A stretch of 64,000 nt of DNA from a virus (IMGVR_UViG_3300031555_004294:96001-160000), one strand, 5' to 3'; positions 9,568-61,768 are shown, numbered from the stretch's first letter. Numbers and translations: made by a program. The notes: a model not told the origin generated them from the letters alone.

Positions 9568-9733
9568 AATTTTATTTCTCCTTTTTTTTTTATTATGTGG
9601 AGATGAAGATACCACTATGTATGCTATAAAGATATATAGATATAATGGGGTATTATACGTTTTTCATAAATAACCCCAAAAAACAATAAAATAATGAACC
9701 AATAGGAAATACGTTAGAAAGGAAATATAGATT

Positions 9734-11248: not shown

Positions 11249-11253
11249 TTTTT

Positions 11254-11284
11254 AGAGTATAACCTCATAAACGGTTATACTCTA
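11254..11284 (+). terminator. Intrinsic terminator hairpin
   Basis: agagtataacc...ggttatactct; the same stem recurs at 58212-58241. Confidence 0.65.
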
Positions 11285-11358
11285 ACTTTCTTAACCTTTA
11301 AAACACCCTTCCAACATTCCATTATAAAATAACAAAGGAAAGGAGGAAATAACATTTT

Positions 11359-16008: not shown

Positions 16009-16479
16009 TTACTCCATACTGTTTATTAGTGATGTTTTAATGTTATCAGAAATCTTTTGATTCCTAAATACATTGCTCCAATTTAGTTTCCATCTGTTTC
16101 TTAATAAAAAACTTCTAGACAAATCTTGATATTGAGATATCATTTCCCAATCTACTTCATCTTCATGTTTTTCTATAAAAGTCTCTTGTAATTCTTGTAC
16201 CATACAAATATCGTGCCAGTCTACTCTATCTTTAAACTTTTCTATTAGTGCCTCTGATAGATTTTGTGTAGATGACATTAATTGGAAATCTAGGTAAGGT
16301 GCAAATCTTACTATGAACTTCTCAGTTAACTTATGTCTGACTTGTATATCCTTCCAGTACTCTTTACGATTGTACCAGGTTTCATACTTATCTTGTATTG
16401 GACTATTATAGTTACTCTTCTTTAGCAATTGGATTTCCGTCTCCATCAAGTTCATCTTTATTCTCACTTTCTGACACAT
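16009..16479 (-). CDS. Tryptophan-repeat protein
   Basis: ~23-aa repeats Q-x-LSE-x-FI-xx-F-xxx-VDW. Confidence 0.75.
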   Translation of the reverse strand: MCQKVRIKMNLMETEIQLLKKSNYNSPIQDKYETWYNRKEYWKDIQVRHKLTEKFIVRFAPYLDFQLMSSTQNLSEALIEKFKDRVDWHDICMVQELQETFIEKHEDEVDWEMISQYQDLSRSFLLRNRWKLNWSNVFRNQKISDNIKTSLINSME

Positions 16480-17053
16480 TTTTAGTTGGTTTATAGGTTA
16501 GAACTTCTTCTAAATGGTCTTTTGTATAAAGGAACATCTTTGACAACACTATTGGATCCACATATGACTTCTTAAAATACACGTCGAAATCTATATAATC
16601 CTTCATCTTTAAGATAAAACCAATTGAGAAACGTTTATTTTTGCTTACCATTTGCCAATTAACTTCATCTTTGTATTTTTCAAGGAGTTTGTCATCATCA
16701 TAGAAATCTGATAATCGTGAAATATGTTTCCAATGTTTAGGTGTTAATCGACTATCATATTTCTCTAAAAATTTTTTTATTAACTGTCGTCCACTGTACT
16801 TTTCGTCATGACTCCAAAGTCCATTATTACAAACAAGTTTATCCCAATCTATAACATTTTCAAATTCTTCTACAAACTTATATTTCTTATCAATGTCACC
16901 TAGGATGTACATACGCTCTGTTATGACATCTATAGTTTCAAATGGTCTTCCTTTGTTAAGATCTTTATATTTTAGATGGTATTCTGCAAGTGGAAGATAC
17001 GTCATCAATAAATCAAATTTTTGTTTCTTTGTTAATTGTCTTCTATTTTTCAT
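16412..17053 (-). CDS. Tryptophan-repeat protein with LTKKQKFDL leader
   Basis: Degenerate Trp repeats (KYKDEVNW). Confidence 0.7.
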   Translation of the reverse strand: MKNRRQLTKKQKFDLLMTYLPLAEYHLKYKDLNKGRPFETIDVITERMYILGDIDKKYKFVEEFENVIDWDKLVCNNGLWSHDEKYSGRQLIKKFLEKYDSRLTPKHWKHISRLSDFYDDDKLLEKYKDEVNWQMVSKNKRFSIGFILKMKDYIDFDVYFKKSYVDPIVLSKMFLYTKDHLEEVLTYKPTKNVSESENKDELDGDGNPIAKEE

Positions 17054-17594
17054 CTGTAATTAAATCTCCATGTGACTTTAAAAAATCTTTTAATTGAATC
17101 ATAAAATCATGACGATAATAATTTTCATTTGCAAATGTAATTTCATTAACACTATCAATAAATTCTACAAATTCTTGTAGATTAAATTTTTTAGACTTGC
17201 TTATCAAATACCAATCAAGTTTATCTTTGTATTTTCTCAGAAACTTATTAAATTTCAGATATCTCTGATTTTCAGAAAAGTATTTCCAAATCTTTATTGT
17301 AAAATGTTCATGAAACAGACCTACAAATTCTATAAGTGTATCTTCATTCATCCATAAACAACATCCACCATCTAAAATTGTAGTATACCAGAGTATATTG
17401 TTCTCATATCCAGCTAAGAAATCTATTAAGCCGTCTTTGTCATTCTCAAAAATACGTCCTAATTTCAAACAAAACTGCCTTTTCAGAAAATAATCCATGT
17501 CACTGTTTATTGTAATTTCTGGATACATCTTCTGAAACATTGGTTTATAAACCATTTCCAAATCAAATATTTGTTGTTTGGTTAACTTTTTCAT
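17043..17594 (-). CDS. Tryptophan-repeat protein with LTKQQIFDL leader
   Basis: KYKDKLDW repeat, AGGAG RBS, early-type promoter 17633-17645. Confidence 0.7.
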   Translation of the reverse strand: MKKLTKQQIFDLEMVYKPMFQKMYPEITINSDMDYFLKRQFCLKLGRIFENDKDGLIDFLAGYENNILWYTTILDGGCCLWMNEDTLIEFVGLFHEHFTIKIWKYFSENQRYLKFNKFLRKYKDKLDWYLISKSKKFNLQEFVEFIDSVNEITFANENYYRHDFMIQLKDFLKSHGDLITDEK

Positions 17595-32877: not shown

Positions 32878-33375
32878 TTACTTCTTTTCAGAGTCCTTTA
32901 AAACCTTGGGCTTAAGAGCATTATCCTTAGTCTTGGTTCCAGATACACCCTCTTTAGGTGCCTTAACGATAGTCTGAGAAGTCTTCTTAGCAGCCTTAAG
33001 AGCAGCCTTAGCAGTTCTAGTAGCCTTGCTAGCATACTGCTTATTAATCTTAGCGATTAGCTTCTTACGGAGACGAGAAACCTTAACAAGCTTCTGATAG
33101 TCAGCACTCTTAGCAGCACGAGCAGCAGAAAGAGCAGCCATAGTCTTAGTTAAGTTAAAGTACTGATCTCTACTCATAACACGTTGTTTGTTAGTCATCT
33201 TATTAGTGGAGACAGTAGCTTCAGTGTATACGGAATATTCATCACCAAGATCAGCATAACCGCTTTCACGGAGCCATTCTACGATCATATCAAAATCTTC
33301 CTGTATAATCATTTCATTTTCAACCTCTTCAGGAGTTTGATTTTCATTTAGATTCTTGTATTCATCAAGTAACAT
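32878..33375 (-). CDS. Putative virion protein with acidic propeptide and basic mature region
   Basis: Late promoter 33425-33436. Acidic N-terminus ending YTE|A, then K/A-rich. Confidence 0.55.
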   Translation of the reverse strand: MLLDEYKNLNENQTPEEVENEMIIQEDFDMIVEWLRESGYADLGDEYSVYTEATVSTNKMTNKQRVMSRDQYFNLTKTMAALSAARAAKSADYQKLVKVSRLRKKLIAKINKQYASKATRTAKAALKAAKKTSQTIVKAPKEGVSGTKTKDNALKPKVLKDSEKK

Positions 33376-33497
33376 TTTATATCACCTTTCCTTTTTAGAT
33401 TTTTAAATTTAAATAGTTTTACTTTATTAGATTGTTGTTTCTAAAAATATTAAAAATTTTGTATGTTCCTGTTTACTTTTATCTCTAGAAACCTGAA

Positions 33498-33950
33498 TTA
33501 TTTGGAAATAGCTGTAAAGATATCCATGAATTCTTGTAAAGGCTGTTTTTCAGTAAGAATTGCTTTTTTATTCTTTTCTACTTTTTCCTTTTGTTCATCG
33601 CTAGTAGTATCTGGAATGATAGAAGCGTCATCATTTTCTTCATCAAGCATGTTAGCTGATGCATTTTGAACGCCAGCTGTATTAGCTTGTGTTTGTTTAG
33701 CAAATTTCTTTTCTCGACTTGCTAGTTTCATTCCATCTGCTTTTGCAGTAGCTACATCTTTCATACCGCCTGCTATTTCTTTAACGCCTTCTTTAACTTC
33801 TTTTCCGCCAGCTTTTACTCTAGCTTTGCCATTTTCTATTCTACCTTTTGCTGCTGCCATTGCGTCGTTATTAAGTTGTTTAGCGTTATCTATATTTTCT
33901 TGAGAATCTGCAACTTCTTCCTCATATAAGTAGATCCATTTTTTTGCCAC
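33498..33950 (-). CDS. Hypothetical late protein
   Basis: Late promoter 34009-34020, GAAAGGAG RBS. Confidence 0.6.
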   Translation of the reverse strand: MAKKWIYLYEEEVADSQENIDNAKQLNNDAMAAAKGRIENGKARVKAGGKEVKEGVKEIAGGMKDVATAKADGMKLASREKKFAKQTQANTAGVQNASANMLDEENDDASIIPDTTSDEQKEKVEKNKKAILTEKQPLQEFMDIFTAISK

Positions 33951-34061
33951 TTTACTGCACTCCTTTCCATTATAAATTTTTGTACAATTTTAATCACACC
34001 TTTATCTATATATAATTGTTTTGAAAATATTTTACTAACACAAGAAAGGAAGAAAGTAAAA

Positions 34062-34562
34062 ATGGAGAAAAAAGTTATTTGGTCTAATTGTGATTTAAAA
34101 CTTGATGATTGGATTGATTGTTTTAAAGAAACAAACCCTGATTTAACTGAAGAAGAGTACTTACAAATGATGTATGAAGCTAACGATGGTAACTTAGATT
34201 TTGTAAGAGATGATTTAGATAAGGTAGTAGCTGATAGTATTTTAGTTATTGCAGATATAGGTAGATGGAATGGTCGAGTTATGGGATACAAAGTTATAGA
34301 AAGTGGAAATCTTGCTGATTGTTTATATTCTGACTGTGATATGGCTGAATGGTATATTGATGAAGAAAATGAGTTTAAAGGACATTTTGTTCATCATGAT
34401 GGTCGTAATAATTGTTACTACAGAATCTGGAAAGATGACATAGAAGATGAAAACAAAGAAGAACTGTTAAATTTGATTTACAATGGTAAAGCAACTCAAG
34501 AAGATATAGACAATTTAACTGAAAAATTAGGTGACACAATTAGTAAAATTTATGGTTGGTGA
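34062..34562 (+). CDS. Hypothetical acidic protein
   Basis: First gene after the early-like motif at ~34004; DIGRWNGR and HHDG conserved-looking motifs. Confidence 0.7.
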   Translation: MEKKVIWSNCDLKLDDWIDCFKETNPDLTEEEYLQMMYEANDGNLDFVRDDLDKVVADSILVIADIGRWNGRVMGYKVIESGNLADCLYSDCDMAEWYIDEENEFKGHFVHHDGRNNCYYRIWKDDIEDENKEELLNLIYNGKATQEDIDNLTEKLGDTISKIYGW

Positions 34563-34569
34563 TTTGAAA

Positions 34570-34920
34570 ATGACAAATGATGAAATTGTAAAACACTTTA
34601 TATTTGATTTGGAAATGGAAAGATTTAATAGAACTACAAAAACAATCTTTCTATCATTTTCAAATGTACTTGGATTTAAACTTGTAAAAGAAAGAACTTA
34701 TAAAATTGATGTTGATTTAGTAAGGAAATTTCTAAAAGTTGTTTTAAAAGCTGGATTTACATTTCCTCTAAATGCTAAAACATATGTTTCTGATGATAGA
34801 GAAGAAATAATCTTGGATTTAGAACTCAAAAAAATTTATATTTTGAGAGAAGGAACTATTTGTTGTAAAAATTACATTCCAGAATATGTAGAGGAGTACA
34901 AATTAGAAAATGACGAATGA
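34570..34920 (+). CDS. MTNEE-array protein 1
   Basis: MTNDEIVKHFIFDL...IPEYVEEY. Confidence 0.8.
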   Translation: MTNDEIVKHFIFDLEMERFNRTTKTIFLSFSNVLGFKLVKERTYKIDVDLVRKFLKVVLKAGFTFPLNAKTYVSDDREEIILDLELKKIYILREGTICCKNYIPEYVEEYKLENDE

Positions 34921-35257
34921 AGAAATTAGAAAAAAATTTTTGTTTGATTTAACAATGGGAAGATTTGAAAGAATTATTACTGACCAAATTATATTTTATG
35001 GACCATATCTTGAAACTTTCCAATTGGCAATGGTGTTAATTGACCTTGGATTTGAAAATGCAGAGTATGAAGATAAACTTAAGCGAAATAATTTCATACT
35101 TCTGGATAGAACAGAAATTCGTATATTTACTGAAACTAAAAGTTTTCACACTTATTGGATACCTAGCAGTATTGGTAATAGCAATCCTATAAATCAACAA
35201 ATACCAGATTATGTAAAAAAATATAAAATAACGGATAGTAGAGTTCTAATTACCTAA
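34910..35257 (+). CDS. MTNEE-array protein 2
   Basis: MTNEEIRKKFLFDL...IPDYVKKY. Confidence 0.85.
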   Translation: MTNEEIRKKFLFDLTMGRFERIITDQIIFYGPYLETFQLAMVLIDLGFENAEYEDKLKRNNFILLDRTEIRIFTETKSFHTYWIPSSIGNSNPINQQIPDYVKKYKITDSRVLIT

Positions 35258-35276
35258 AGGAGTAAGAATTTAGAAA

Positions 35277-35600
35277 ATGACGAATGAAGAAATTAGAAAG
35301 AGATTTGAATTTGACTTAAAAATGGGAAGATTTAAAGTTTCTCCAGATTCAGTACATTTAGGTTTGTTAACATCTAAAAATCAAGATGCATGTAATAGGC
35401 TGTTTAAGTTATTGACTGATATAGGAAAAACACAAATTGGACCTGGTTTTGAAGAAGAATTTGATGGTGTTTATATCTTTTCCTCATTCAAAAATAGATT
35501 TCAGTTGTTAAAATATAATGAAAAGATATTAGCTGAAGGTAAAGCTATTTTTAATGAAATTCCAGATTATATCAAGGAGTACAAAATAAATGACGAATGA
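35277..35600 (+). CDS. MTNEE-array protein 3
   Basis: MTNEEIRKRFEFDL...IPDYIKEY. Confidence 0.85.
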   Translation: MTNEEIRKRFEFDLKMGRFKVSPDSVHLGLLTSKNQDACNRLFKLLTDIGKTQIGPGFEEEFDGVYIFSSFKNRFQLLKYNEKILAEGKAIFNEIPDYIKEYKINDE

Positions 35601-35910
35601 AGAAATTAGAAAAAGGTTTCAATTTGATTTGGAAGTAGGAGTCTTTAAGAAAATTGAATTTGAAACTTATTTTTTAATAAAACGAAAAGACCTATGTTTT
35701 ATCGATTTCTTAATTGATATAGGTTACTTTTTTACATTTTTACCAAGTGCAGATGCATTAATAAATCAATCTATTAGGGAAACAAATGAAGTTTGTATGG
35801 TGCTAAATGAAGCTACTAAAGAAATAAACCCAACACTATGGAGATTTAAAGAATACTTTAATGATGTACCAGATTATATCAAGGAGTACAAAATAAAAAA
35901 TGACGAATGA
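35590..35910 (+). CDS. MTNEE-array protein 4
   Basis: Same terminal motifs. Confidence 0.85.
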   Translation: MTNEEIRKRFQFDLEVGVFKKIEFETYFLIKRKDLCFIDFLIDIGYFFTFLPSADALINQSIRETNEVCMVLNEATKEINPTLWRFKEYFNDVPDYIKEYKIKNDE

Positions 35911-36229
35911 GAATGAAGAAAAAAGATTCCAATTTGATTTGGATCTGGAAATAAAGTACAAAACTAAGTATACTAAGAACCACAAAATAGTATATTTCGT
36001 TTTGGACGATTCTGATTCTTATCCTTTCTTAATAGAATTAAGAAATGTTTTAAAAAGGTTAGGATACAAAAAGAAAGGTGGCTATGTGAAAAATAGCAAC
36101 GCTTTAAAGTTATATCTTAAGACAAGAAGATATGAAGAAGTGTATTCTGCACCAGATTTTAAGTCCATAACTTCACCTAAGAATCGATTTCCAGATTTTA
36201 TTAAGGAGCGTGTTTTAAATGACGAATGA
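35900..36229 (+). CDS. MTNEE-array protein 5
   Basis: MTNENEEKRFQFDL...FPDFIKE. Confidence 0.85.
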   Translation: MTNENEEKRFQFDLDLEIKYKTKYTKNHKIVYFVLDDSDSYPFLIELRNVLKRLGYKKKGGYVKNSNALKLYLKTRRYEEVYSAPDFKSITSPKNRFPDFIKERVLNDE

Positions 36230-36533
36230 AGAAATTAGAAAAAGATTTGAATTCGATACAGAATTTTTATTTAAAAATAGCAACTTAGATGAAATGTACT
36301 TTGTTTGTCCTATAAATAAAATAGGAAAATTTTTATATTTTTTAGAACATGATCTTGGATATAAAAGGAAAAATGCCATTTTTCCAAGGGGTTACAGAAT
36401 GAATGTAATTTATTTGGCAGTTTGTACAAAGTCTAAGTGTCTTATTAGATTTGAAGATTACGTAGATGGCTCTATTAGACTAAATCCAGTACCAGAGTAT
36501 ATTAAGGAGTATGAAATAAACTATGACGAATGA
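36219..36533 (+). CDS. MTNEE-array protein 6
   Basis: Same terminal motifs. Confidence 0.85.
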   Translation: MTNEEIRKRFEFDTEFLFKNSNLDEMYFVCPINKIGKFLYFLEHDLGYKRKNAIFPRGYRMNVIYLAVCTKSKCLIRFEDYVDGSIRLNPVPEYIKEYEINYDE

Positions 36534-36852
36534 AGAAATCAGAAAAAGATTTAAATTTGACATTGAAATGGGTGTATTTGAAATAAACAAAAGTATACTT
36601 TGTTACACATTCAATGATAGCACGGAAAGTTGTCTTAAATTAAGAAAACTACTACTTGATATTGGAATGAAAGAATTGGAAAGATTTAGAAAACATAAAG
36701 ATGATGAAATTTGTACGGTACTGTTCTATGTTATAAATCCTGAAAGTTCTGATGATTCATGGAATAATACATTTGATACTTTTCAATATCGTGATGATGT
36801 CTATAGAAATAACAAAATTCCAGATTACGTCAAGGAGTATGTTATAGAATGA
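36523..36852 (+). CDS. MTNEE-array protein 7
   Basis: Same terminal motifs. Confidence 0.85.
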   Translation: MTNEEIRKRFKFDIEMGVFEINKSILCYTFNDSTESCLKLRKLLLDIGMKELERFRKHKDDEICTVLFYVINPESSDDSWNNTFDTFQYRDDVYRNNKIPDYVKEYVIE

Positions 36853-37163
36853 CAAATGAAGAAATTAGAAAGAGATTTAAATTTGACTTAGAAATAGGAA
36901 TGTTCAAAAAAGACTATCCATTTGAAAGTATTACATTTCATGGGTATTATAAAGAAACTGCAAAATTAATAAAATTGCTTATTGATAGTGGCTATGAAGG
37001 GATAATTGCTAATAACTTAGAAAATAAGCATAATGGAGAACTTTATAGAACACAAATAGATGTTTCTAATAAAAAAATTTTAGCAATATATTGGACGTTG
37101 ACAGAAAATTATAATCTTCTTCCAGATTATATCAAGGAGTATGAAATAAACTATGACGAATGA
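36849..37163 (+). CDS. MTNEE-array protein 8
   Basis: Same terminal motifs. Confidence 0.85.
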   Translation: MTNEEIRKRFKFDLEIGMFKKDYPFESITFHGYYKETAKLIKLLIDSGYEGIIANNLENKHNGELYRTQIDVSNKKILAIYWTLTENYNLLPDYIKEYEINYDE

Positions 37164-37467
37164 AGAAATCAGAAAAAGATTTGAATTTGATATGAACATT
37201 GGTCTATTTTTACTAGACTCCAGTAATTTTATTACTGAAAAAACTTTGTTTAAATGCAGTTGGAATAGAAAACTTGCAACAAAGTTCTTAGAAATGCTTA
37301 GTGATAGTGGTTATAGTTTATCTCGGTATTACAAAGATTCAATCATCACCCTCTATGATAATCCTGTTATCGCACTAGATCAGATTAGCAAAATACATTC
37401 AATTATTGAGGATTTTGATGGAACTATATTGAACGAAATACCAGACTATATCAAGGAGTACAAATAG
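37153..37467 (+). CDS. MTNEE-array protein 9
   Basis: Same terminal motifs. Confidence 0.85.
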   Translation: MTNEEIRKRFEFDMNIGLFLLDSSNFITEKTLFKCSWNRKLATKFLEMLSDSGYSLSRYYKDSIITLYDNPVIALDQISKIHSIIEDFDGTILNEIPDYIKEYK

Positions 37468-37758
37468 ATGACGAATGAAGAAATTAGAAAAAGATTTGAG
37501 TTTGATAGCAAATTTAGTTTTAAGACTTACCCAAATTTTGCTTTCTTTAAAATTGACACTAAAACACCTATTACTAATAGATTTCTTGCAGTTTTACATG
37601 ACAATGGTTATACAGGAAAAGGTACTGTCAATAATACACATTTGTACTTAGTAATTGATTTTAGAGACAAAAAATTCTTAGGTATTGTAAGTGTTGATAA
37701 TGAAAATGTACTTATATACAATCAGATTCCAGATTATATCAGGGAATATAAAATATGA
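37468..37758 (+). CDS. MTNEE-array protein 10
   Basis: Same terminal motifs. Confidence 0.85.
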   Translation: MTNEEIRKRFEFDSKFSFKTYPNFAFFKIDTKTPITNRFLAVLHDNGYTGKGTVNNTHLYLVIDFRDKKFLGIVSVDNENVLIYNQIPDYIREYKI

Positions 37759-38105
37759 CGAATGAAGAAATTGAAAGAAAATTTGAGTTTGAATTAAGTA
37801 TAGGTCTCTTTAAGCATTCTATTAGATATCCAGATGAAATTCTTTTCAAAAGGGGTAGTAGAACCTACAAACTTCTTAAGTTGCTTACTAACATAGGTTT
37901 TGTTAGTGATGAAGATTCACTTTTAACTTTATGTAAGGAATCATATATAAAGGAACTTCTTGAAAGTAGAAATGGAGTTTATCTAGAAATAAGCATGAAG
38001 GACAGAATTGTAGATATAGATACAAATTGGAATTACTTGAATCCGATAACTCAGACTACGGATTTTAACGAAATACCAAGGTATGTAAAGGATTATCAAA
38101 TATGA
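37755..38105 (+). CDS. MTNEE-array protein 11
   Basis: Same terminal motifs. Confidence 0.85.
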   Translation: MTNEEIERKFEFELSIGLFKHSIRYPDEILFKRGSRTYKLLKLLTNIGFVSDEDSLLTLCKESYIKELLESRNGVYLEISMKDRIVDIDTNWNYLNPITQTTDFNEIPRYVKDYQI

Positions 38106-38509
38106 CGAATGAAGAAATTAGAAAAAGATTTGAGTTTGACTTAAAGATGGGTTTATTTAAAAATAGGAGTCGTTTTGCTGGAGGAGAATTTAGATTCTGT
38201 GGCTACCTTGAAGATTCTATTAAATTTTTAAATTTACTTATCGATAGTGGTTATTTGTGCTCAATGTCAGAAGATACGTTTAAAAACATGATAAGAACAT
38301 ACAATTCCGCTGATACTGAAAAACTGTGTAAAATAGATATAGTCCCTTCAGATAAAATAGTTTTATCAGTCAATAGGAGTTTTGAAAAAGAAGATAATCC
38401 ATTTCCAGATTACATTAAGGAATACAAAGTATCGTTAAATAACTTACAAAGGAAAGTAATTAGATTTAAAAACCTGACAAAAGAGAAGAAATACAATTAT
38501 GACGAATGA
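38102..38509 (+). CDS. MTNEE-array protein 12
   Basis: Same terminal motifs plus a C-terminal extension. Confidence 0.85.
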   Translation: MTNEEIRKRFEFDLKMGLFKNRSRFAGGEFRFCGYLEDSIKFLNLLIDSGYLCSMSEDTFKNMIRTYNSADTEKLCKIDIVPSDKIVLSVNRSFEKEDNPFPDYIKEYKVSLNNLQRKVIRFKNLTKEKKYNYDE

Positions 38510-38894
38510 AGAAATTAAAAAAAGATTTGAATTTGACTTAAAGATAGGTTTATTCAGGGAAGATATACTAGGATACGGTAAAAATAATGTAGTTACGTTT
38601 TATGATTACTATCGTAATTCTACTAAACTTCTGAAATTACTTATTGACTGTGGGTTTCTTTTTAGTAAACCTCCCACTCAATTAAATTTACCAGATCCAG
38701 ATATAGTAGAATGTACAACTGCTAAAGATCTTCTGTTTAAAATTACTATAAAACCAACTGATAAGTTAATCCTTGATACTCACTGGATTCTTAGACAACC
38801 ATTTAGTAGTAATCCACTACCAGAGTTTGTAAAAGATTATGAAATTCCAAAAAATTTTAATTTTGAAACTCTAATTCAAAAAAGTTCAGACTAA
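38499..38894 (+). CDS. MTNEE-array protein 13
   Basis: MTNEEIKKRFEFDL...LPEFVKDY. Confidence 0.85.
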   Translation: MTNEEIKKRFEFDLKIGLFREDILGYGKNNVVTFYDYYRNSTKLLKLLIDCGFLFSKPPTQLNLPDPDIVECTTAKDLLFKITIKPTDKLILDTHWILRQPFSSNPLPEFVKDYEIPKNFNFETLIQKSSD

Positions 38895-38936
38895 AAATTT
38901 ATTACACATGGAAAAGAAAGGAGATTTTAAAGCCAA

Positions 38937-40871
38937 ATGTCAATAGATCTCAGTAAAAGTACTTTTGTCAAAAATTATAGAGATGACATGCTAAGTGCAT
39001 TGAAACTATTGAAACCAGATATGACTGATGATGAACTGTTAGCAGTCATAGATGATCAGATAGCAAACAATGCAAAGTTAAATGATGAAACATGTAATGT
39101 TGCTATTAGAAACAACTATACCAAGGAAGAAAGTAGTCATACTCTATTAGAAATTTTGGATTTTTATGAAAACAAAAATCCCATTATGACTGGCTATGGA
39201 GTTATGTTTAAGCAACATGACAAAGCTATCAATTTAAATGCGGATTTTGTTAGCTGGTTGATGAGCGAGAGAAAAGTAGCTAAGAAAGCACAATTTGCTG
39301 CATTAAATGAGGGAGACTATATTAAAGAGTCTTTCTATGAAATGCTGCAGAAGACTTTTAAATTGTTGAACAACTCTTATTATGGAGCTACTGGAGAAAA
39401 GAACAGTCAGTTCTATAATCCAGTTATACCACCAAGTGTAACTTTCATGGGGTATGCTATTATTACCACTTCAATTTTAGCATTTGAAGCATTTTTAAGT
39501 AACAACATTCACTATGACAACTTTAACGACTTGTGTGTCTATGTTAAAAATTGCTTAAAGAGTACTAGAAATGATTTGAAAATTCTCAAAGTTCTTGATT
39601 CTGAAAATGTAAAGAAGAAACAAGATTTGTTAGATAACTTAAAGAGTTTGATGACTGTTTCTTTGACTAAAGATGAGAAGTCTAAGCTAAAGACTCTGAT
39701 TAATGGACTTTCCAAAGAGCAAGTTAATCGAGTTTACTATAAGAACAACTTGTATGAGTTCTTGAATAATGCAACTCAGAAGAAGTATCTAGAAAATATC
39801 TTGCAGTATGATATCATCAATCCGAATGAAGTTAATGATGACATTAAGGAAAACTTAGATAAACTTTGGGAACTATTAGAAGAATTTGTAGTTTATGACT
39901 TCCAGTATTGGAATAGAGCTGATAGAGCATTCAATATGGAAAGAGAAACTATATTGGTGGTAGATACTGACTCAAATTTCTTGTCGTTGAATCCATATAT
40001 AAAATGGGTAGAAAAGTCTATACAGCTTCCAGAATCAGACAAATTGTTCTATTCAATTCCTAACTCAGCTATCTTATTCTTGTCCAAGTTTATTCAGAAA
40101 GAACTAAACAGATTGACTGAGAATTGTAATGTTTCTGAAGTTAAGCAACCTATTATCAATATGAAGAGCGAATTTTTGTATTCTAGAGTCATGCTTAGCC
40201 GAAACAAGAAACAGTACTGCGGATTATTAGAGTTGCAGGAGGGTAATATCAAAAGGAAGGTAGACATGAAGGGTATGTCAATTAAGAAGGCAAATGTCAA
40301 TAATCGTACCAGACAAGTGTTTACCAACATGATTGAAAATAAGATACTGAAATCTGATAACATCAACATTGCAGAAATTTTAGGTATCTTTAAAGCATTT
40401 GAAGATGAAATTTATAATTCACTTCATAATGGTGAGATAACTTTCTTAACACCAGGTAAGTGTAATGAACTTGATGCTTACAAGGATCCATATAAAGTAG
40501 CTTCTGCTAGAGGTACTATGATTTGGAATCTGCTTAATCCAGATAATACTATTCAGACACCAGCTAAGGTAAATATGCTAAAGCTGAACATCAATTCCAT
40601 TGAAGATCTTGAACCAATCTATGAAACTGAGATGTTTGAGAAAATTCAAAAGTTAATTTTTGATGATGAAAGATTGGCACATTATGGAATGGCTACAATA
40701 AGTTTGCCTAAATCTGTAAATAAGATACCTGATTGGTTAATTCCATTTATCAACTATGATGACATTATTGACGACAATATTCGTGTTGGTAATATCTTAC
40801 TTGAAAGTTTAGGGATAAAGCTAATGCAATTTAACAATAAGGAATTCTATAGTACTTTCATCAGTTTTTAA
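38937..40871 (+). CDS. Family B DNA polymerase, polymerase-domain subunit (phiKZ/AR9-type split enzyme)
   Basis: KLLNNSYYGA (motif B), VDTDS (motif C), KKQY. No recognisable exonuclease domain. Confidence 0.85.
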   Translation: MSIDLSKSTFVKNYRDDMLSALKLLKPDMTDDELLAVIDDQIANNAKLNDETCNVAIRNNYTKEESSHTLLEILDFYENKNPIMTGYGVMFKQHDKAINLNADFVSWLMSERKVAKKAQFAALNEGDYIKESFYEMLQKTFKLLNNSYYGATGEKNSQFYNPVIPPSVTFMGYAIITTSILAFEAFLSNNIHYDNFNDLCVYVKNCLKSTRNDLKILKVLDSENVKKKQDLLDNLKSLMTVSLTKDEKSKLKTLINGLSKEQVNRVYYKNNLYEFLNNATQKKYLENILQYDIINPNEVNDDIKENLDKLWELLEEFVVYDFQYWNRADRAFNMERETILVVDTDSNFLSLNPYIKWVEKSIQLPESDKLFYSIPNSAILFLSKFIQKELNRLTENCNVSEVKQPIINMKSEFLYSRVMLSRNKKQYCGLLELQEGNIKRKVDMKGMSIKKANVNNRTRQVFTNMIENKILKSDNINIAEILGIFKAFEDEIYNSLHNGEITFLTPGKCNELDAYKDPYKVASARGTMIWNLLNPDNTIQTPAKVNMLKLNINSIEDLEPIYETEMFEKIQKLIFDDERLAHYGMATISLPKSVNKIPDWLIPFINYDDIIDDNIRVGNILLESLGIKLMQFNNKEFYSTFISF

Positions 40872-40979
40872 AAAGTTAAAACAGTTTCTAAACATATATA
40901 ATTTCTTTAGAAACTGTTTATGACTTTTTCTACAGTAAAGTAACTAACAAAAACAAAATTTTTAAGGAGGCTAACTAAA

Positions 40980-41822
40980 ATGGCAGTTACTAACAGAAGT
41001 AACAATGATAACCAGAAAGAAAAAGTAACTTATAAGTGGGGTAACAGTGGTCCTAGCTTTTGGCAGAAGGATAACAACACTGTACTTCAGACTTCCCTAA
41101 GAAAATCTGACAAGAATAATTCGTATGAGCTTATTCTTAAGATCCAGACACTGGATAGTGATGGAAAGTTTGTTAAGTCTGAAGATGGTAATTATGACAA
41201 TGGTTACATCAATTTATCTGCAAATGAAATAGCTAAGATTGCTTACCAGCTTGAAGACATGTTCCCCACTGGCGATATGGATGCTGGTACTATCGGTGGC
41301 ATTATCATCAATCATATTTCTGCTCAGACCAATAATGGTTCTCAGCTTGAAATTGTTAGCGAGGAAGATGGTGTTTATGTCTACATTTCTTACGTACAGA
41401 ATGCTAGTGTAACAGCAGAATACAAGCATTTACTTAGCAACGATCAGACTTTGAAGTTCTATAATGCTGATGGTGAAGAAGCTGAAGAAGTTATCAACAT
41501 GGATATCGTAGCTTTCAAGAGACTCTTTAACAGTGCATATGCTGTGGTATCTGGCTTAGTTGATTCTACATTTGAATGCAATGGTTTTTCAATTAATGGT
41601 AGATCTGAATCTAAAACTGGCGGCAAAGTAGCAGGTGGTATGAATCGTAAAGTTCGTTCTACTCTTGGCTCTAAGAAGGCTGAAATGGTATCTGAAGACG
41701 ATGATGAAGAAGTAGATGAAGCACCTGCAGCTAAGAAGACTGTTGGTCGTAAGTCCTCTATTGCTAGATCTGCATCTAACATGAAGTCACTTTTAGAAGA
41801 TGACGATGAGGAGGATGACTGA
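40980..41822 (+). CDS. Probable single-stranded DNA-binding protein
   Basis: Follows the DNA polymerase gene, beta-rich core, flexible acidic tail, EDDEDIPF encoded in the +1 frame just past the stop. Confidence 0.55.
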   Translation: MAVTNRSNNDNQKEKVTYKWGNSGPSFWQKDNNTVLQTSLRKSDKNNSYELILKIQTLDSDGKFVKSEDGNYDNGYINLSANEIAKIAYQLEDMFPTGDMDAGTIGGIIINHISAQTNNGSQLEIVSEEDGVYVYISYVQNASVTAEYKHLLSNDQTLKFYNADGEEAEEVINMDIVAFKRLFNSAYAVVSGLVDSTFECNGFSINGRSESKTGGKVAGGMNRKVRSTLGSKKAEMVSEDDDEEVDEAPAAKKTVGRKSSIARSASNMKSLLEDDDEEDD

Positions 41823-41917
41823 GGACGACGAAGATATTCCTTTCTAAATCGTTAAGCACAGTTATCTAAAAATTTTTATGAGTCTGTATTTGTAACAGAA
41901 TACAGACTCAACTATTT

Positions 41918-42667
41918 TTGACGGAGATACAGAACATGATATTTAATGACAGAGAAGTAAAACCTTATAAAATAACTGAAGACAAAGATACATTACTGAA
42001 CACTAACAATACTGAAAAGAAAATTTTAGTTACAGATTTTGATGACACTTTAGCATTGACTGCAATTAAGCATTTTCATTTAGTACAGAATTCTAAGAAT
42101 GTAGAAACTTACAAGAAGTACATGAACATAAATCAGACATCACAAAGGTTCTTTTATAGTAGAACAGAATACTATACTAGCAAATGGTTGAAGAGACCTG
42201 AAGTAGATGAAATTCCTAAAGAAATAGCAAATGAAATTACGGACTTGTTTAATCTTCCAGACTTTTATGATGATGTTAAGCCTACTAAATTTGCTATCGC
42301 TTTAAAGGAATATCTTAAGCAACCTTATTGTGAAAAGATTTATGTAATTTCACATTGTCTATCAGATACAGCTGCTGACGCAAAAATAAAATGGTTGGTA
42401 GATTTTTATAAGGATTGCAATCCTGAGAAGATAGAATTTATCCCTACTACTGATACAAGAAAATCAATTCCAATTATGGAAAGAGGAATTAAATGGGACA
42501 TCTTTGCAGATGATCGACTTGAATGCATTTATGATATGGTTTTGTACGGTCAAGGCTTTGGTAACGAAATTTTAATTCCTGAGTTCGGTTATAATAAGCC
42601 GACAGAAAGATTTTCTAATCTAGTGGAGAAATTCAATCTACAGACATTTTATATGAACGTCCTGTAA
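41918..42667 (+). CDS. HAD-family 5'(3')-deoxyribonucleotidase-like protein
   Basis: LVTDFDDTL (motif I), K..WL, IFADDR (motif IV). Confidence 0.7.
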   Translation: MTEIQNMIFNDREVKPYKITEDKDTLLNTNNTEKKILVTDFDDTLALTAIKHFHLVQNSKNVETYKKYMNINQTSQRFFYSRTEYYTSKWLKRPEVDEIPKEIANEITDLFNLPDFYDDVKPTKFAIALKEYLKQPYCEKIYVISHCLSDTAADAKIKWLVDFYKDCNPEKIEFIPTTDTRKSIPIMERGIKWDIFADDRLECIYDMVLYGQGFGNEILIPEFGYNKPTERFSNLVEKFNLQTFYMNVL

Positions 42668-42782
42668 GAAGTAAATTGAAACAGATAGTTACTAAAACTA
42701 TCTGTTTCTTTTTTTTTATCTAGTTTTTATAGTCTGAAACAATCCATTATTAAAAGAAACGTACGAAAGGAGGAGTTTTCCT

Positions 42783-43953
42783 TTGAAAATAGATATTTGT
42801 AATCTGGACAAATTTATAAAGGTTAACAACATACAAGAAGTTACTAACCCTATACGTTTTGATGCAGATTGGTACCCAACTGATAATGGTCTTTTATCAT
42901 ATAGAATTTTTGGTCAAGTTGGTAGTTATGATAGACGTACTTTATTTGGTTACATCGACCTAAAAGGACACTTTTTACACCCATTATTTTATTTGAGACT
43001 CATAAAAATGAATCGTAATTTTGCTAGAGTCATTGATGGTAGTGGCTATTTTAGAATTAACGAAAAAGGTGAGTTAGTTGCTGATAATGAGAATGGAAAT
43101 ACTGGAATAGCTTGGCTTTATAAGAATTTCAAAAATCTTAAGTTTAAAAAATCGGGTTCAGGAGAGCGAGACAGGACTATAGACCTTCTAACTAAACTTG
43201 ATCTTGATGAAATCTTTGTCAGCAAGTGGCTTGTAATTCCTGCCTTTTATCGAGATTCTAATATACAAAAACTCGATCATGGAAGAGTTTCAGAAGATGA
43301 AATCAACCCTATGTATGCAAATTTGATTTCTCTGGCAAGTTCTAAATCAGATTTCGACTTTATGGGATATATTACGGAATCTAGAATTCAAAAACAGCTT
43401 TTAGAAATCTATGATTACTTGACTGGATATATCAAGGGTAAGACTGGACTTCTCAAGAATAGTTTGCTCGGCAAGACTGTGGACTATTCAACTCGCGGTG
43501 TTATCTCAGCAGGTAGAGTCAATTCTAATACATCAGATGAACAATTGGTAAAGTTTACTTATACTGGCATTCCTTTATCTCATTTGTGTAACTTATTCTA
43601 TCCTTTCTTCCAATACGAGATAGCTAGTTTTGCAGAAGAAACCTTTGCATCAGTTAATGAAATTAGGGGTTCTGATGGAAATTATTATCCATTGGTAAAT
43701 CCTATGAGTAAATTTACAACTGAAAAGATAAAAGGGATGATGAACTTATATATTAAGTCACCTGATAATAGACTTGATCCAATCATGGTTCCAATTAGGC
43801 TTAAGAATGGAAGTGTTAAAGAAGTTCCTTTAAATCTCTTCCAAGATGATTTAAAGAGACACTTTACTTTACTGGACTTGATATACATTGTTGCAACTAG
43901 AGTTTGTCTTGACAAACATGTGTATGTAACTCGATTTCCGATTGAAAACTATC
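42783..43953 (+). CDS. rpoC: Phage RNA polymerase beta' N-terminal/catalytic subunit, exon 1
   Basis: GLLSYRIFG, FGYIDL, KGKTGLLKNSLLGKTVDYSTRGVI, TRFP. Late promoter 42738-42749. Confidence 0.9.
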
Positions 43954-55959: not shown

Positions 55960-56420
55960 TTGTGTAAGAAGGAGAATATATGGTGGTGCACAAGAAGTGA
56001 CGATTATATTCTTTCTGTATGTTTGCAAGATACAGAGAAGACGAAGGCCAAGTCAACCATTGCAATTCTTACATATCATAGAGATAGGTTGGTCTTACCT
56101 TGGATCCAACCAAACAATCTTACCTAAAAAGCCCTAAAGAACTCGTAACGTGGAATTACTGAGATGTATGATAAAGGCGGCCAAGATGTACCACGAGAGT
56201 TGTTGCTCCAAATAATACAACCACATCAGGCTATGAGTTTGCTCTAGAGAGCAGTAGATTAGTTTATGCTAGACCATCCCATCCTCCTGCCCTAGCCAAC
56301 TAATCGAGAACGGTAAGCTCTTCTTTTCAAAAGAAGTTGAAGAAAACTCAAAATTCATAATGGTTAAAACGTTATGAGACATAAAAAAGAGAAGTGTGGG
56401 ATGGCACTTCTTTTTTTTTT
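55960..56420 (+). ncRNA. Candidate structured non-coding RNA or attenuator leader
   Basis: Early-type promoter 55945-55957, no credible ORF, raised GC, many inverted repeats, ends in the gaagtg...cacttc + T-tract terminator. Confidence 0.65.
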
Positions 56421-56463
56421 TACAAGATCACATAATTTCAATTCTAAGGAGACAAAAAAGAAA

Positions 56464-58203
56464 ATGGGACAGGCAAACATAGATCAACTTTTTTTGAACT
56501 CAAATATCATAGATGAAGCAGAAACAAAAGAAAAAATTAAGTCTACACTAGCTAAAATAGCGAGAGAAGTTAGTAAGTCTTTAGGTCCATACGGTTCAAC
56601 TACTATCATTGAAGATAGACTTGGTGACCATTATATGACCAAGGATGGGTATACAATCCTTAAGGCTATGAACTACAACTACGATATTTCTCGTACAGTT
56701 CTAGATATAGTTAAGAAGATTTCTAAAGCATTGGTTAGAACTGTCGGTGATGGTTCTACATCTTCTGTAGTCATTGCCAATGAATTATTTGATTCAATTA
56801 CTTCAATCTCAGATAACTTACAGTTAGCTCCTCAAGATATTCTTGAAATTTTCAATGTTTTAGCTGAGAACTTTGAAGCTATGATTTTGAATGAAGCAAC
56901 ACAAATTACAGATGAAAACTTTGATGAAACTATCACAAAGATTGCAACTATTTCTTGTAACAACAATCAAGAATCTGGTAAGCTATTTTGTGATATTTTC
57001 CGAACCATTGGTAAGTATGGTTTTATCAACTTAGAGAATGGTAAGTCTAGTAAGGACTATTTTGAGAAAGTACAGGGTATTGAAGTTCCTAGAGGATGGA
57101 TCAATGCTCGTATGGCAAACCAAAATGACAGAATTTCAACAGAATATGAAAATGCACTTGTGTTCATGATGAATGATATTATGTCTGATGACGAAATTGA
57201 TTTCATTGCAAGTGTTATGGACAATGTATGTATTAAGCAGAATGTTCCTCTTATCATAGTAGCAACTAACTATACTTCTTCTGTTAAATCGTTCTTTGAT
57301 GCAAATCTTCAGAAGAATAAGCATCTTCCTGTAGTTGCTATCGACATTGACGCATCTACTAAAAATGGTAAAGATAGATTTGAAGATTTAGCATTAGCTC
57401 TTGGTTGTCATTATTATGACAAGTACAATGGAATGGAAAATCTTAATGAATTCTCTATCAGAGATTTAGGAAAATGTAAGAGATTTAAGGGAGATGACTT
57501 ACGTTCCACTTTCATTGATGGTGAAGGTTATGTTTCTAACGCAGAAAGACTTCAGGAACACATAAAAAATCTTGAAACTGAATATGAAAGACTTCAGCAT
57601 ATGGATGAAATTCACGATAACCGTGAAAAGGATCTCTTCCAAATTAAGAAACGTATTGCTACTTTAACATCCTCTATGGCAACTCTTTATGTTGGTGGTG
57701 GTTCTGAAATGGAACGTACTACTAGAAAGTTCTTAATGGAAGACGCTGTTTATGCATGTCGTTCTTCTATAGAAAACGGATATGTAGTTGGAGGTAACTT
57801 AATTCTTCCTAAGATTTTGGTAAAACATGAAGATGTTATTGTTGAAAATACTGTAAGAGATGAACGCTTAAAGTATTTGACTAACATCTACGAGAATGAT
57901 GAAGATTTTATGTCAGCAATTATGTATATCGTTGAAAATATACTTTCGGCTTTCAAACAGTCATTTATGACCGTTTTAAGAAATGCACACATTAGTAATG
58001 AAAATGCTGCAAAGATCATCAAAACTTGTATTGATGAAGATAAGATTTACAATGTGAAATTGAGAAGATATGAGAACGATAATGAGACCAATGTAATTAA
58101 CTCGGCTGAAACTGACATAGAAATCATCAAGGCTAGTTTCTCTATCATTGGTTTATTGGCAACTAGCAATCAGTTTATTACTAGCAATCCTGTAAGCAGA
58201 TAA
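56464..58203 (+). CDS. groEL: Phage chaperonin, GroEL-like
   Basis: SLGPYG, TKDGYTI, VGDGSTS, VGG..E, EDAV.A, GYVVGG. ATG 56464 with AAGGAG RBS. Confidence 0.9.
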   Translation: MGQANIDQLFLNSNIIDEAETKEKIKSTLAKIAREVSKSLGPYGSTTIIEDRLGDHYMTKDGYTILKAMNYNYDISRTVLDIVKKISKALVRTVGDGSTSSVVIANELFDSITSISDNLQLAPQDILEIFNVLAENFEAMILNEATQITDENFDETITKIATISCNNNQESGKLFCDIFRTIGKYGFINLENGKSSKDYFEKVQGIEVPRGWINARMANQNDRISTEYENALVFMMNDIMSDDEIDFIASVMDNVCIKQNVPLIIVATNYTSSVKSFFDANLQKNKHLPVVAIDIDASTKNGKDRFEDLALALGCHYYDKYNGMENLNEFSIRDLGKCKRFKGDDLRSTFIDGEGYVSNAERLQEHIKNLETEYERLQHMDEIHDNREKDLFQIKKRIATLTSSMATLYVGGGSEMERTTRKFLMEDAVYACRSSIENGYVVGGNLILPKILVKHEDVIVENTVRDERLKYLTNIYENDEDFMSAIMYIVENILSAFKQSFMTVLRNAHISNENAAKIIKTCIDEDKIYNVKLRRYENDNETNVINSAETDIEIIKASFSIIGLLATSNQFITSNPVSR

Positions 58204-58321: not shown

Positions 58322-58939
58322 TTGAAAGAGCTTACTAAAAAACAACTATTTGATTTACAGATCAACTATACAAAATATATTATCGAATATGGCGATAAAT
58401 GGTGGGAAGAAAAAGAAAATTGGATAAGCATTATAACTTGGGATAACTTATCCGAAGATTTCATAAGGGAATTTCAAGATTATTTAGACTTTTGCGTCAT
58501 TCCTGCAACTCAAGTTTTATCCGAAGATTTCATAAGGGAATTTCAAGATAAACTTGATTGGAATTCAGTATCAATAAACCAAGATCTATCCGAAGATTTC
58601 ATAAGGGAATTTCAAGATAAAATTTATTGGATTGGAATATCTGGCCATAAAAGAGATTTATCAGAAGATTTTATAGAAGAATTCCAAGATAAAGTTAGCT
58701 GGAGTTTGATCTCAATATATCAGAAATTATCGTGTGATTTTATAAGAAAGTTTCAAGACAAAGTTTACTGGACTTCAATTTTTAATCATCAAGAAAATTT
58801 ATCTGATGATTTCATATTGGAATTCCAAGATAAAATAAGTTGGAATAACTTATGTTGGAACAATCCATCCAAATGTAATATTTTTAAAAAATGGAGGAAG
58901 TTAATAGATGATAGCACTAACCAAACAACAGGAGTTTGA
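58322..58939 (+). CDS. Tryptophan-repeat protein with LTKKQLFDL leader
   Basis: LSEDFIREFQDK.xW repeats, early-type promoter 58266-58278. Confidence 0.8.
   Translation: MKELTKKQLFDLQINYTKYIIEYGDKWWEEKENWISIITWDNLSEDFIREFQDYLDFCVIPATQVLSEDFIREFQDKLDWNSVSINQDLSEDFIREFQDKIYWIGISGHKRDLSEDFIEEFQDKVSWSLISIYQKLSCDFIRKFQDKVYWTSIFNHQENLSDDFILEFQDKISWNNLCWNNPSKCNIFKKWRKLIDDSTNQTTGV
58451..58620 (+). repeat. Intragenic 30-bp exact repeat, 69-bp period, three copies
   Basis: tccgaagatttcataagggaatttcaagat at 58451, 58520, 58589. Confidence 0.85.
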
Positions 58940-59591
58940 TCTCTTGTTCAAATATTCAAACTTAGGATTTACGAATGAAAATTTGCATAGCGAAAAGAAA
59001 TGGGCAGAACTCATTCATCATCCTTCCAGAATATATGTAACACACAATAAGGAATTCTTACTTGAGTTCAAAGATGTTCTAGATATTGAAAATTTATCTG
59101 GTGGTATTCCAAATTACTTTATGAATGACTTTGAATTTTTTGATGAAATTTCCAAGTATATTGATTTTGGTTGCTTTCCTATCCGAATTCAAGATTACAG
59201 TACTGACAATGTATCTGTAGCTGCTCTTAGACGTTATAAGGAGACACTTAATTGGAATCGAGTGTACATATCTACACCATCAGAAGCTTATACTTCAGTA
59301 GAATTTTTAGAAGAGTTCAAAGATGTTCTATGTTGGGACAATCTTGATTATTCTTACATCTCTGAAGAAACTATAGAGCTTTTCAAGAATAAAGTATCTT
59401 GGAAGAAAGTTTGTATGAAGACTGATTTATCAGAGGACTTTATTAGACGAAACAAAAGAAAAATAGCTTGGAAGACACTTTGTAAACAACGTGATAAAAC
59501 TTTGAATTTCTCTGTTGAATTTATGAAGGAATTTGACGATAAAATTCACTGGGAAGTTTATGTAAAAGGACGTAAAACTTTATTTACTTAA
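58908..59591 (+). CDS. Tryptophan-repeat protein with LTKQQEFDL leader
   Basis: EFKDVL.W and LSEDFI repeats. Confidence 0.75.
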   Translation: MIALTKQQEFDLLFKYSNLGFTNENLHSEKKWAELIHHPSRIYVTHNKEFLLEFKDVLDIENLSGGIPNYFMNDFEFFDEISKYIDFGCFPIRIQDYSTDNVSVAALRRYKETLNWNRVYISTPSEAYTSVEFLEEFKDVLCWDNLDYSYISEETIELFKNKVSWKKVCMKTDLSEDFIRRNKRKIAWKTLCKQRDKTLNFSVEFMKEFDDKIHWEVYVKGRKTLFT

Positions 59592-59608
59592 AAGGAGATA
59601 CAAAAATT

Positions 59609-60730: not shown

Positions 60731-60739
60731 AAAGGAATT

Positions 60740-61231
60740 TTGAAAATGAAAAAGCTAACAAAGAAACAAATATTCGATCTTCAACTTAACTATACATGGA
60801 TAACAAAACTGTGTGGTGATGAGTGGTGGAATGATTGGCAGAAATGGAGAGCTGTATCCTATCTTAACTTATCTGATGATTTCATAAGAGAGTTCAAAGA
60901 TAACTTAAGTTGGTTTGAGCTTACAAGAAACCACCAATTTACTCTTGAAACAGTAAGAGAATTCCAAGATTATATACATTGGGATACTCTGTCAAGAATG
61001 AGAATATCGGAAGATATCATAAGAGAATTTCAAGATAAATTGAACTGGCAATTTATTTCTACCTACCAAGATTTATCAGAAAATTTCATAATGGAGTTCA
61101 AAGATAAAGTTCAATGGGATGAGATTTATGTCAATCAAAATTGTTCTAAAGAATTCTGGCAAAAGACAAGTGAATACTGGATGCCATATTTTGAACATCT
61201 TAAACACAGACGAAAGGACGAATTAAGATGA
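60740..61231 (+). CDS. Tryptophan-repeat protein with LTKKQIFDL leader
   Basis: LSDDFIREFKDNLSW repeats. Confidence 0.8.
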   Translation: MKMKKLTKKQIFDLQLNYTWITKLCGDEWWNDWQKWRAVSYLNLSDDFIREFKDNLSWFELTRNHQFTLETVREFQDYIHWDTLSRMRISEDIIREFQDKLNWQFISTYQDLSENFIMEFKDKVQWDEIYVNQNCSKEFWQKTSEYWMPYFEHLKHRRKDELR

Positions 61232-61755: not shown

Positions 61756-61768
61756 AAGAGGTTTATAG

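Follow-up and report, generated by a model that had tools for sequence, protein, structure and literature searches.

In poxviruses, African swine fever virus and other large DNA viruses of eukaryotes, multigene families, generally involved in host interaction, behave as 'gene accordions', in which unequal recombination shifts the number of tandem copies. In phage T4, the internal-protein locus encodes diverse injected proteins with a common short N-terminal capsid-targeting sequence, namely, a cleaved 10-residue peptide borne on unrelated bodies; one of these proteins, IPI*, blocks a restriction system. The present report considers an array of 13 small tandem genes at positions 34570-38894 of a 64,000-nucleotide stretch of DNA (hereafter, the window), corresponding to bases 96001-160000 of the 299,070-bp IMG/VR virus record IMGVR_UViG_3300031555_004294 (~30% G+C), the genome of a 299-kb gut jumbo phage from animal faeces that is related to the Bacillus phages AR9 and PBS1. 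With a probability of roughly 0.6, the array is read as the lineage-specific tandem expansion, by slow gene birth and death, of a single new family of soluble alpha/beta proteins of ~105 residues within an early operon, with these proteins serving as binders of host or competitor targets.

Jumbo phages are known to undergo lineage-specific expansions of small proteins, one example being the ~35 zinc-ribbon copies of Bacillus phage G (Iyer et al., 2021; PMC7824862). Like these zinc-ribbons, the array comprises many small paralogues in one jumbo phage that are lineage-restricted and for which a function can at most be guessed. Unlike the zinc-ribbons, the array family contains no recognized domain, is strictly tandem and chained by overlapping stop and start codons, and occupies a defined site upstream of the DNA polymerase gene polB, together with a second locus where copy number changes in the opposite sense. 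Among known systems, the one nearest to the idea of cassette shuffling is that of the PeSLs of T4-type phages, intergenic promoter-plus-terminator units that flank unrelated orphan genes and for which indels between close relatives, as well as mini-circles, were shown experimentally (PMC2839356; PMC4122927). Here too, short conserved sequences that could act as recombination sites bracket small genes (non-essential early genes in the case of PeSLs). By contrast, the repeat in the array consists of the coding ends of homologous genes and a ribosome-binding site, no stem-loop terminator accompanies it (positions 33300-41200) and no variants were seen between samples.

The array resembles the T4 internal-protein locus in that diverged small proteins with a constant N-terminus and a plausible counter-defense role are encoded at a variable locus, but differs in that conservation extends to both ends of proteins with homologous bodies, a structural helix being predicted at the N-terminus. 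Such a predicted structured helix neither proves nor excludes packaging in virions. With the gene accordions, the array shares tandem paralogues and variable copy number; it differs from them in the bacterial host, in the translational chaining of genes in one operon and in the lack of recent, near-identical duplicates.

Array anatomy and the protein family

The array consists of 13 consecutive open reading frames (ORFs) on the plus strand, each encoding a protein of 96-135 residues and each open and intact (Table 1). A single profile matches all 13 units (E 1e-22 to 8e-36), such that adjacent genes are demonstrably homologous. Every unit begins with MTN(E/D)E, and 12 of the 13 present P-x-[YF]-[IV]-x-x-[YR] close to the C-terminus. 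Amino acid identity reaches 68% over the first 20 aligned columns and 61% over the last 10, as compared to a mean of 17% (range 8-31%) over the middle 68. The central L..LL.D.G[YF] helix motif is still present in the middles, with G48 being invariant across the 13 units and L44 being kept in at least 90%. ORFs, profile matches and regional identities thus all agree with the initial annotation of this stretch, in which 13 small genes with fixed ends and variable middles had been described. Two further elements of that description did not hold. The most degenerate units are not simply those at the edges, since it is unit 1 and the internal unit 5 that diverge most, and the proposed analogy to a repeat-spacer array fails because the middles belong to one homologous family. 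Indeed, the middles are diverged homologous cores with one predicted common fold, rather than unrelated inserts.

The proteins are hydrophilic, with isoelectric points (pI) of 4.8-9.4, 10 of the 13 being acidic or near neutral. The near-invariant positions are mostly hydrophobic (F10, F12, F19, F30, L44), complemented by K8, D13, P92 and Y94, and include nothing that would suggest an enzyme. When the window was searched with the family profile (E up to 0.01), no further ORF was matched. A deeper profile, applied to the whole genome (G000), revealed a divergent 14th member that stands alone at 173234-173575 on the minus strand, i.e., at 77234-77575 in window numbering and hence outside the window.

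An exhaustive profile search of 1.84 billion representative proteins returned 178 hits (clusters at 50% identity), all ~79-173 residues long and all sharing the start MTNEEI.KRF.FDLEMG.F and the end N.IPDYI.EY. Across 150 representatives of these hits, the conserved ends hold. On the other hand, neither megablast of the 7-kb region nor tblastn of unit 8 against 50,697 phage records yielded a match, nor did the units match Pfam (E up to 0.1), PHROGs or PADLOC, while a profile search of the PDB (E up to 10) gave chance-level hits only, the best being to designed proteins (E 0.07). As judged from these searches, this is a previously undescribed family of small proteins with no recognized domain.

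Table 1. Features of the array and its surroundings (window numbering)
Feature	Positions	Strand	Description
ORF of 634 residues	30803-32707	-	Match to PHROG 'RNA polymerase beta subunit' family; counterpart by synteny, AR9 g154
Early-promoter-like site ATCTATATATAAT	34003-34015	+	G six bases downstream; likeness to AR9 early consensus
ORF of 166 residues, acidic	34062-34562	+	First gene after the promoter-like site; outside the family
Unit 1	34570-34920	+	116 residues from ATG; divergent; profile E 1e-22
Unit 2	34910-35257	+	115 residues; ORF and family profile
Unit 3	35277-35600	+	107 residues; ORF and family profile
Unit 4	35590-35910	+	106 residues; ORF and family profile
Unit 5	35900-36229	+	109 residues; basic, pI 9.4; sole unit with clear orthologues in other phages
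Unit 6	36219-36533	+	104 residues; ORF and family profile
Junction 6/7 (J7)	36483-36595	+	Shares 49-nt identical run with junction 8/9
Unit 7	36523-36852	+	109 residues; ORF and family profile
Unit 8	36849-37163	+	104 residues; used for structure models
Junction 8/9 (J9)	37113-37225	+	82% identical to junction 6/7 over 113 nt
Unit 9	37153-37467	+	104 residues; ORF and family profile
Unit 10	37468-37758	+	96 residues; ORF and family profile
Unit 11	37755-38105	+	116 residues; ORF and family profile
Unit 12	38102-38509	+	135 residues; C-terminal extension
Unit 13	38499-38894	+	131 residues; ORF and family profile
Family-B DNA polymerase (polB), catalytic part, divergent	38937-40871	+	PF20286, 2e-45; phrog_2927, 1e-103

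Copy number, unit order and the junctions

Relatives were sought in profile and polB-anchored scans of IMG/VR. Two other phage types were found to carry the array at the syntenic site, one with 9 units (L009/L010) and the other with 15 (L011/L012), as compared to 13 in the window. The flanking proteins are mostly 38-86% identical to those of the window, with the two fastest-evolving small ones being 27-53% identical. The L009 phage contains a second array, also of 9 units (L013, positions 8575-13135), which is syntenic with the locus of the lone 14th member in the window genome, beside another small-gene family. As this second locus holds 1 copy here and 9 in the relative, expansion at the two loci has run in opposite directions in these phages. 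The array is absent from relatives with polB proteins of 51, 45 and 38% identity. Scanning metagenomes with the family pattern detected no relatives; a polB query of metagenomes detected two, both array-less.

Unit order is not shared among the 13-, 9- and 15-copy arrays, and the best cross-array pairs are not collinear. Clear orthologues exist solely for unit 5, which is 57% identical to unit 11 of L011 and 51-55% identical to P0099 and P0132. Comparison of unit 5 with unit 11 of L011 gave a non-synonymous divergence (dN) of 0.35 and a synonymous divergence (dS) of 1.15, i.e., a dN/dS of ~0.3, indicative of purifying selection; selection on the copies was measured for unit 5 alone, the other units having no orthologues. 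Taken together, homologous neighbors, variable copy number, distant relatives without the array and intact copies are what would be expected of a viral tandem multigene family.

Within each phage type, by contrast, the array is constant. The exact unit 8 protein was found in contigs from five other samples, four of which match the window at 99.98-100% identity across all or most of the array, with the fifth (1 kb) spanning units 8-10. One contig of 15 kb, taken from another sample, covers the entire array and differs at a single base in 15,243, and each of the two related phage types (L009/L010 and L011/L012) is unchanged in its second sample. Array content and order thus differ between phage species yet are fixed within each. 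The gain, loss and reordering of cassettes anticipated in the initial annotation are accordingly borne out between phages, in the 13, 9 and 15 copies with no shared order, but not among near-identical samples, where the same array recurs and no sign of active shuffling is seen. Nor did contigs from four animal-faeces DNA runs, the only form in which these were considered, contain reliable junction variants such as had been envisaged; these contigs match the window exactly and end at junctions. A single junction-to-junction joint, linking positions 35892 and 38520, appeared in the faecal contigs; one of its sides measures 21 nt, and it is most likely a repeat artefact.

Short-read contigs from the faecal metagenomes end exactly at the junction repeats (36221, 36523, 37153, 37476, 38110), and two other family members that were looked up lie on contigs of just 590-1,845 bp. 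As such, arrays of this kind are probably under-counted in databases, a practical consequence of short-read assemblies breaking at junctions.

A typical junction reads CCAGATTATATCAAGGAGTAYAAAATAAA-ATGACGAATGAAGAAATT. The sequence AAGGAG, serving as a putative ribosome-binding site, coincides with the K-E codons of the PDYIKEY motif and precedes the next ATG by 12-14 nt. The initial annotation considered each unit to be a translation-ready cassette, and this is upheld: AAGGAG is found exactly in the K-E codons at 7 of 12 junctions and genes overlap at 10 of 12. Variants of the site occur at four other junctions, and the remaining one has AAGGAG within a spacer of 19 nt. Neighboring genes are spaced by -11 nt in seven cases, -4 in three, 0 in one and +19 in one. 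The start ATG-ACG-AAT-GA carries one TGA in each of the two other frames; the second TGA terminates seven of the upstream genes, giving an 11-nt overlap, and the first terminates three, giving a 4-nt overlap. Because ATG-ACN-AAT-GA supplies stops in both other frames, the reading frame of an upstream gene is usually closed no later than 11 nt into its neighbor, and overlaps of 4, 8 or 11 nt are found at 28 of the 42 junctions of the four arrays studied. Furthermore, the Glu of KEY is encoded by GAG in 8 of 10 cases, as compared to 21% of Glu codons in the long genes of the window, pointing to selection for a ribosome-binding site. Such a layout, in which the same bases serve both coding and translation signals, is typical of translationally coupled operons, and coupling would be expected here.

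In members from other phages (P0029, P0049, P0074, P0076, P0102, P0105), a tail resembling WLMKKLKRD[SF]YL[IT] was noted, corresponding to the conserved start of the next gene read in the second frame. This is expected if loss of the embedded TGA lets the upstream gene read through to a TAG inside the D-L-E codons.

Whether the conserved ends bear a signature of recombination was addressed through codon identity, defined as use of the same codon where two units share an amino acid. At the N-terminus, codon identity is 0.75 within the window array and 0.66-0.67 between arrays, relative to 0.51-0.53 expected from codon usage; at the C-terminus, the values are 0.67, 0.60 and 0.53, and in the core, 0.49, 0.55 and 0.45-0.46, respectively. 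With the Thr2 column omitted, N-terminal identity is 0.75 within the window array and 0.71 between the window and the others. The initial annotation had noted conservation at synonymous positions and proposed that junctions be compared with cores; within the array, codon identity is higher at the ends than in the core. Since between-array identity is nearly as high even though the phages compared are saturated at synonymous sites (polB dS 1.9-3.0), most of the excess at the ends reflects standing constraint, arising from a preference for AT-rich codons where genes begin, from the ribosome-binding site and from the overlap of reading frames. The ends themselves are conserved mainly at the protein level and, given that they persist between phages with saturated synonymous sites, their conservation alone is no indicator of recombination.

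Two observations go beyond this. Thr2 is encoded by ACG in 11 of the 13 window units but in none of the 25 Thr codons at that position in other arrays, where ACT, ACA or ACC, equally able to supply the stop codons, are used; ACG accounts for 4% of Thr codons in this genome. Unit 5 also uses ACG, even though its lineage is older than the split from the L011 phage. Likewise, the 49-bp identity at 36504 and 37134 that had been pointed out initially, shared by J7 and J9, exceeds the longest run in all 2000 column shuffles (mean 31, maximum 48). This run takes in weakly constrained tail codons and a rare ATC, and the flanking cores are barely alike (units 6 and 8, 13% identical; units 7 and 9, 15%). 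The ACG codons and the J7/J9 identity are unexplained by constraint and are best explained by short gene-conversion tracts confined to junctions. Adjacent units 1 and 2 of L013, with identical first 15 codons and proteins that are 38% identical, present the same pattern. The earlier proposal of recombination at junctions thus retains the Thr2 codon and the J7/J9 identity as support for junction-confined exchange, and loses the conservation of the ends, which is mostly a protein-level matter. What the evidence supports is junction-limited exchange rather than the swapping of whole cassettes.

These data bear on an alternative reading, in which the array is an actively shuffled cassette library whose junction repeats offer a built-in recombination substrate, with units being frequently added, deleted or swapped to give effector variation at the population level. 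Such a library would account for junction 12-mers being the most frequent 12-mers of the whole 299-kb genome, for the array-specific Thr2 codon, for J7 and J9 sharing 49 nt despite unrelated cores, and for copy number and order varying between phage species. It is nonetheless considered unlikely. The window array is unchanged in contigs of five other samples, as is each related type in its second sample; the faecal contigs contain no joints other than ones with 21-nt sides, which resemble artefacts of assembly; and protein constraint, the ribosome-binding site and codon bias mostly explain the conserved ends. Moreover, no pair of units with similar cores exists in any array, such that no recent duplication is visible. 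Overall, the locus looks like an ordinary fast-evolving gene family rather than a programmed cassette-shuffling device.

The proposed expansion, the predicted fold and other readings

According to the favored reading, i.e., slow tandem expansion of one family, the array would reside in the early operon of an AR9/PBS1-like jumbo phage, extending from promoter to polB, and would be expressed early. The 13 genes would probably be translated as a chain, with the K-E codons of PDYIKEY doubling as the ribosome-binding site of the next gene. The ends would be kept mainly because, as first helix and C-terminal segment, they are integral to the protein, with translation signals adding a second layer of constraint. 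Gene birth and death would be slow, with copy number varying between phage species at two loci, presumably through unequal homologous recombination between junctions, and occasional short gene-conversion tracts would homogenize the junctions. As to function, the best guess is that of diversified early host-interaction proteins, with a common scaffold presenting 13 diverged surfaces that, soon after infection begins, bind different targets in the host or in competitors, be it for host takeover or counter-defense. This guess draws only on the early position, the diversification, the flux in copy number and the lack of enzymatic signatures.

Jumbo phages contain hundreds of unexplained early genes, among which a family amplified to 9-15 copies at a fixed site would be a well-defined candidate for a diversified host-interaction module of gut phages, and one tractable for structure determination and defense screens.

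Several points weigh against this reading. Available relatives are either 99.98-100% identical and carry the same array or are saturated (polB dS 1.9-3.0), and with synonymous sites saturated even in the closest of the differing relatives, no copy-number breakpoint could be mapped. Array orthologues might be unrecognizable rather than absent; some flanking small proteins are likewise just 27-50% identical. The promoter-like site of the window departs at 4 of 13 positions from the early consensus of the genome itself, AAATATATATTCT. Lastly, the units match no known anti-defense or defense family, with PADLOC returning no hit, and nothing links the proteins to a target.

Models of unit 8 generated by AlphaFold2 attained a mean predicted local distance difference test score (pLDDT) of 88.7 with 13 sequences and 89.5 with 150 sequences. 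In both, as assigned by DSSP, the predicted order is helix-strand-strand-helix-strand-strand-short helix, and the conserved ends are the most confident parts (pLDDT of 96-98 for the N-terminal helix). Searches with Foldseek against the PDB and BFVD (none at E <= 0.001) and two ESM Atlas searches gave no convincing match. An exhaustive structural search of 48,161 chains, run twice, gave a best Z of 3.6-3.9, to an uncharacterized cyanobacterial protein (2q22), a value below the usual best chance score of such searches. Prediction of a unit 8 homodimer scored 0.20 relative to a mark of 0.42 and was used neither way.

A further reading concerns the N-terminal helix, which could be a docking or targeting tag common to the early multigene families of the phage, with the array proteins acting as cargo or adaptors for one partner, such as the virion, a phage compartment or an enzyme. 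Consistent with this, at least three other small-protein families of the genome start with a similar K-x-x-[FLI]-x-F-D-L motif, and since each family uses other codons for it, the resemblance is one of peptide rather than of DNA. Profile-profile comparison with one of these, the KKLEFDLEM family, aligns just 11 columns (pairwise E 0.0016). Yet this is a short motif with a common composition, the helix is modeled with the highest confidence of any part of the fold and is no free tail, the conserved C-terminal motif is not common to the other families and no partner is known, rendering such a tag improbable.

It is also conceivable, albeit with little likelihood, that the units are degenerate, non-catalytic LAGLIDADG/WhiA-like domains, i.e., small DNA-binding proteins with differing beta-sheet surfaces that act as early regulators or blockers of DNA sites. 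The predicted order of secondary structure elements in ~100 residues fits this fold, Gly plus a hydrophobic residue follow helix 1 and G-[YF] follows helix 2, and 7-8 of the top 50 matches among the 48,161 chains are LAGLIDADG endonucleases or WhiA, covering residues 1-75 (Z 2.1-3.3; root-mean-square deviation 3.5-5.0 over 58-72 residues). However, every Z lies below 4 and the best match is another protein. No Pfam or PDB sequence match was obtained over 150 members even at E 10; of 60 Pfam families matching at least one of these members, the 25 listed (E up to 10) include no LAGLIDADG family. The conserved G17 is preceded by M, I, L or V, such that the acidic residue found there in LAGLIDADG proteins is missing, with E15 being present in about half of the members. 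The pI range of the units, with 10 of 13 acidic or near neutral, likewise speaks against DNA-binding proteins of this type.

A composite of these ideas would hold the array to be a binder library on a new or LAGLIDADG-derived scaffold, the ends of which serve at once as fold termini, coupling signals and recombination sites for the gain, loss and exchange of modules between loci and co-infecting phages, with the N-terminal helix, common to ~40 other early proteins, docking all of them to one partner. Such a combination is thought rather improbable. That the array arose in assembly or is a non-functional repeat undergoing decay, as might be imagined from short-read assemblies breaking exactly at the junction repeats, deserves next to no credence, given the 15-kb contig from another sample that spans it with a single mismatch, the 13 intact frames, the purifying selection seen for unit 5 and the conservation of the family in other phages. 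Two candidates were rejected outright, namely, a CRISPR-like repeat-spacer array, since the 'spacers' are homologous ORF cores and the neighbors are an RNA polymerase subunit gene and polB, and a diversity-generating retroelement, as RVT_1, although detected in positive controls, is without a match anywhere in the 299-kb genome, in line with the initial remark that no reverse transcriptase lies beside the array.

Presumed operon context and neighboring features

The site of the array, initially described as lying between an early-like promoter and a DNA polymerase gene, is indeed bordered by an AR9-type promoter-like site and by polB. By polB, the closest cultured relatives are Bacillus phages PBS1 and AR9, at 38% identity. 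The early consensus of the AR9 virion RNA polymerase is AAATATATATTAT-(6N)-G, and the AR9 early promoter before polB (g152) was verified by primer extension (PMC5312081). The same neighborhood in AR9 comprises g154, annotated as the C-terminal part of the non-virion RNA polymerase beta' subunit, on one strand, followed by the early promoter and g152. In L009 and L011, AAATATATATAAT is found at the same place upstream of the arrays, while in the array-less relative L024, ATATATATTAT lies directly before polB. The position of the promoter-like site is thus shared by three array-bearing phages, one array-less relative and AR9. By homology, the array is most likely an insertion between the early promoter and polB, the gene that closes the presumed operon. 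With the promoter-like site upstream and no terminator-like site found in 33300-41200, the array is most likely transcribed together with polB. A scan for sigma-70 promoters performed no better than on shuffled sequence (49 versus 44).

The promoter-like site of the window appears to be a weaker variant of the genome motif AAATATATATTCT, which is likely the counterpart in this phage of the AR9 virion RNA polymerase early promoter. Exact intergenic copies of AAATATATATTCT are found in the window at 12495 (-), 17645 (-), 55945 (+) and 58266 (+), with about eight more genome-wide. The motif is over-represented in the genome, and its copies come after a T-run and have G or A 4-6 nt downstream.

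The 166-residue ORF that precedes unit 1 has no Pfam, PHROG or PADLOC match above threshold and no homologue in the syntenic loci L009-L013. Lacking such a counterpart, the ORF looks like a separate insertion.

The genome encodes other multigene families of small proteins, namely, TKQQIFDL (a BLAST cluster of 21 ORFs), LKQVLFE (9), KKLEFDLEM (6) and LKQLIFYL (5). These families are located in the window at 16009-17594 (-) and 58908-62266 (+) and, outside the window, at 35116-43323, 174705-179159, 181550-188253 and 283393-284158 of the complete record. The N-termini of such families resemble the RKRFEFDL start of the array family; profile-profile comparison with four of them revealed likeness of the N-terminal motif only and no whole-domain homology. 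Finally, a phage-encoded GroEL-type chaperonin (phrog_5725, E 6e-114) was noted at 56374-58203 (+) of the window.

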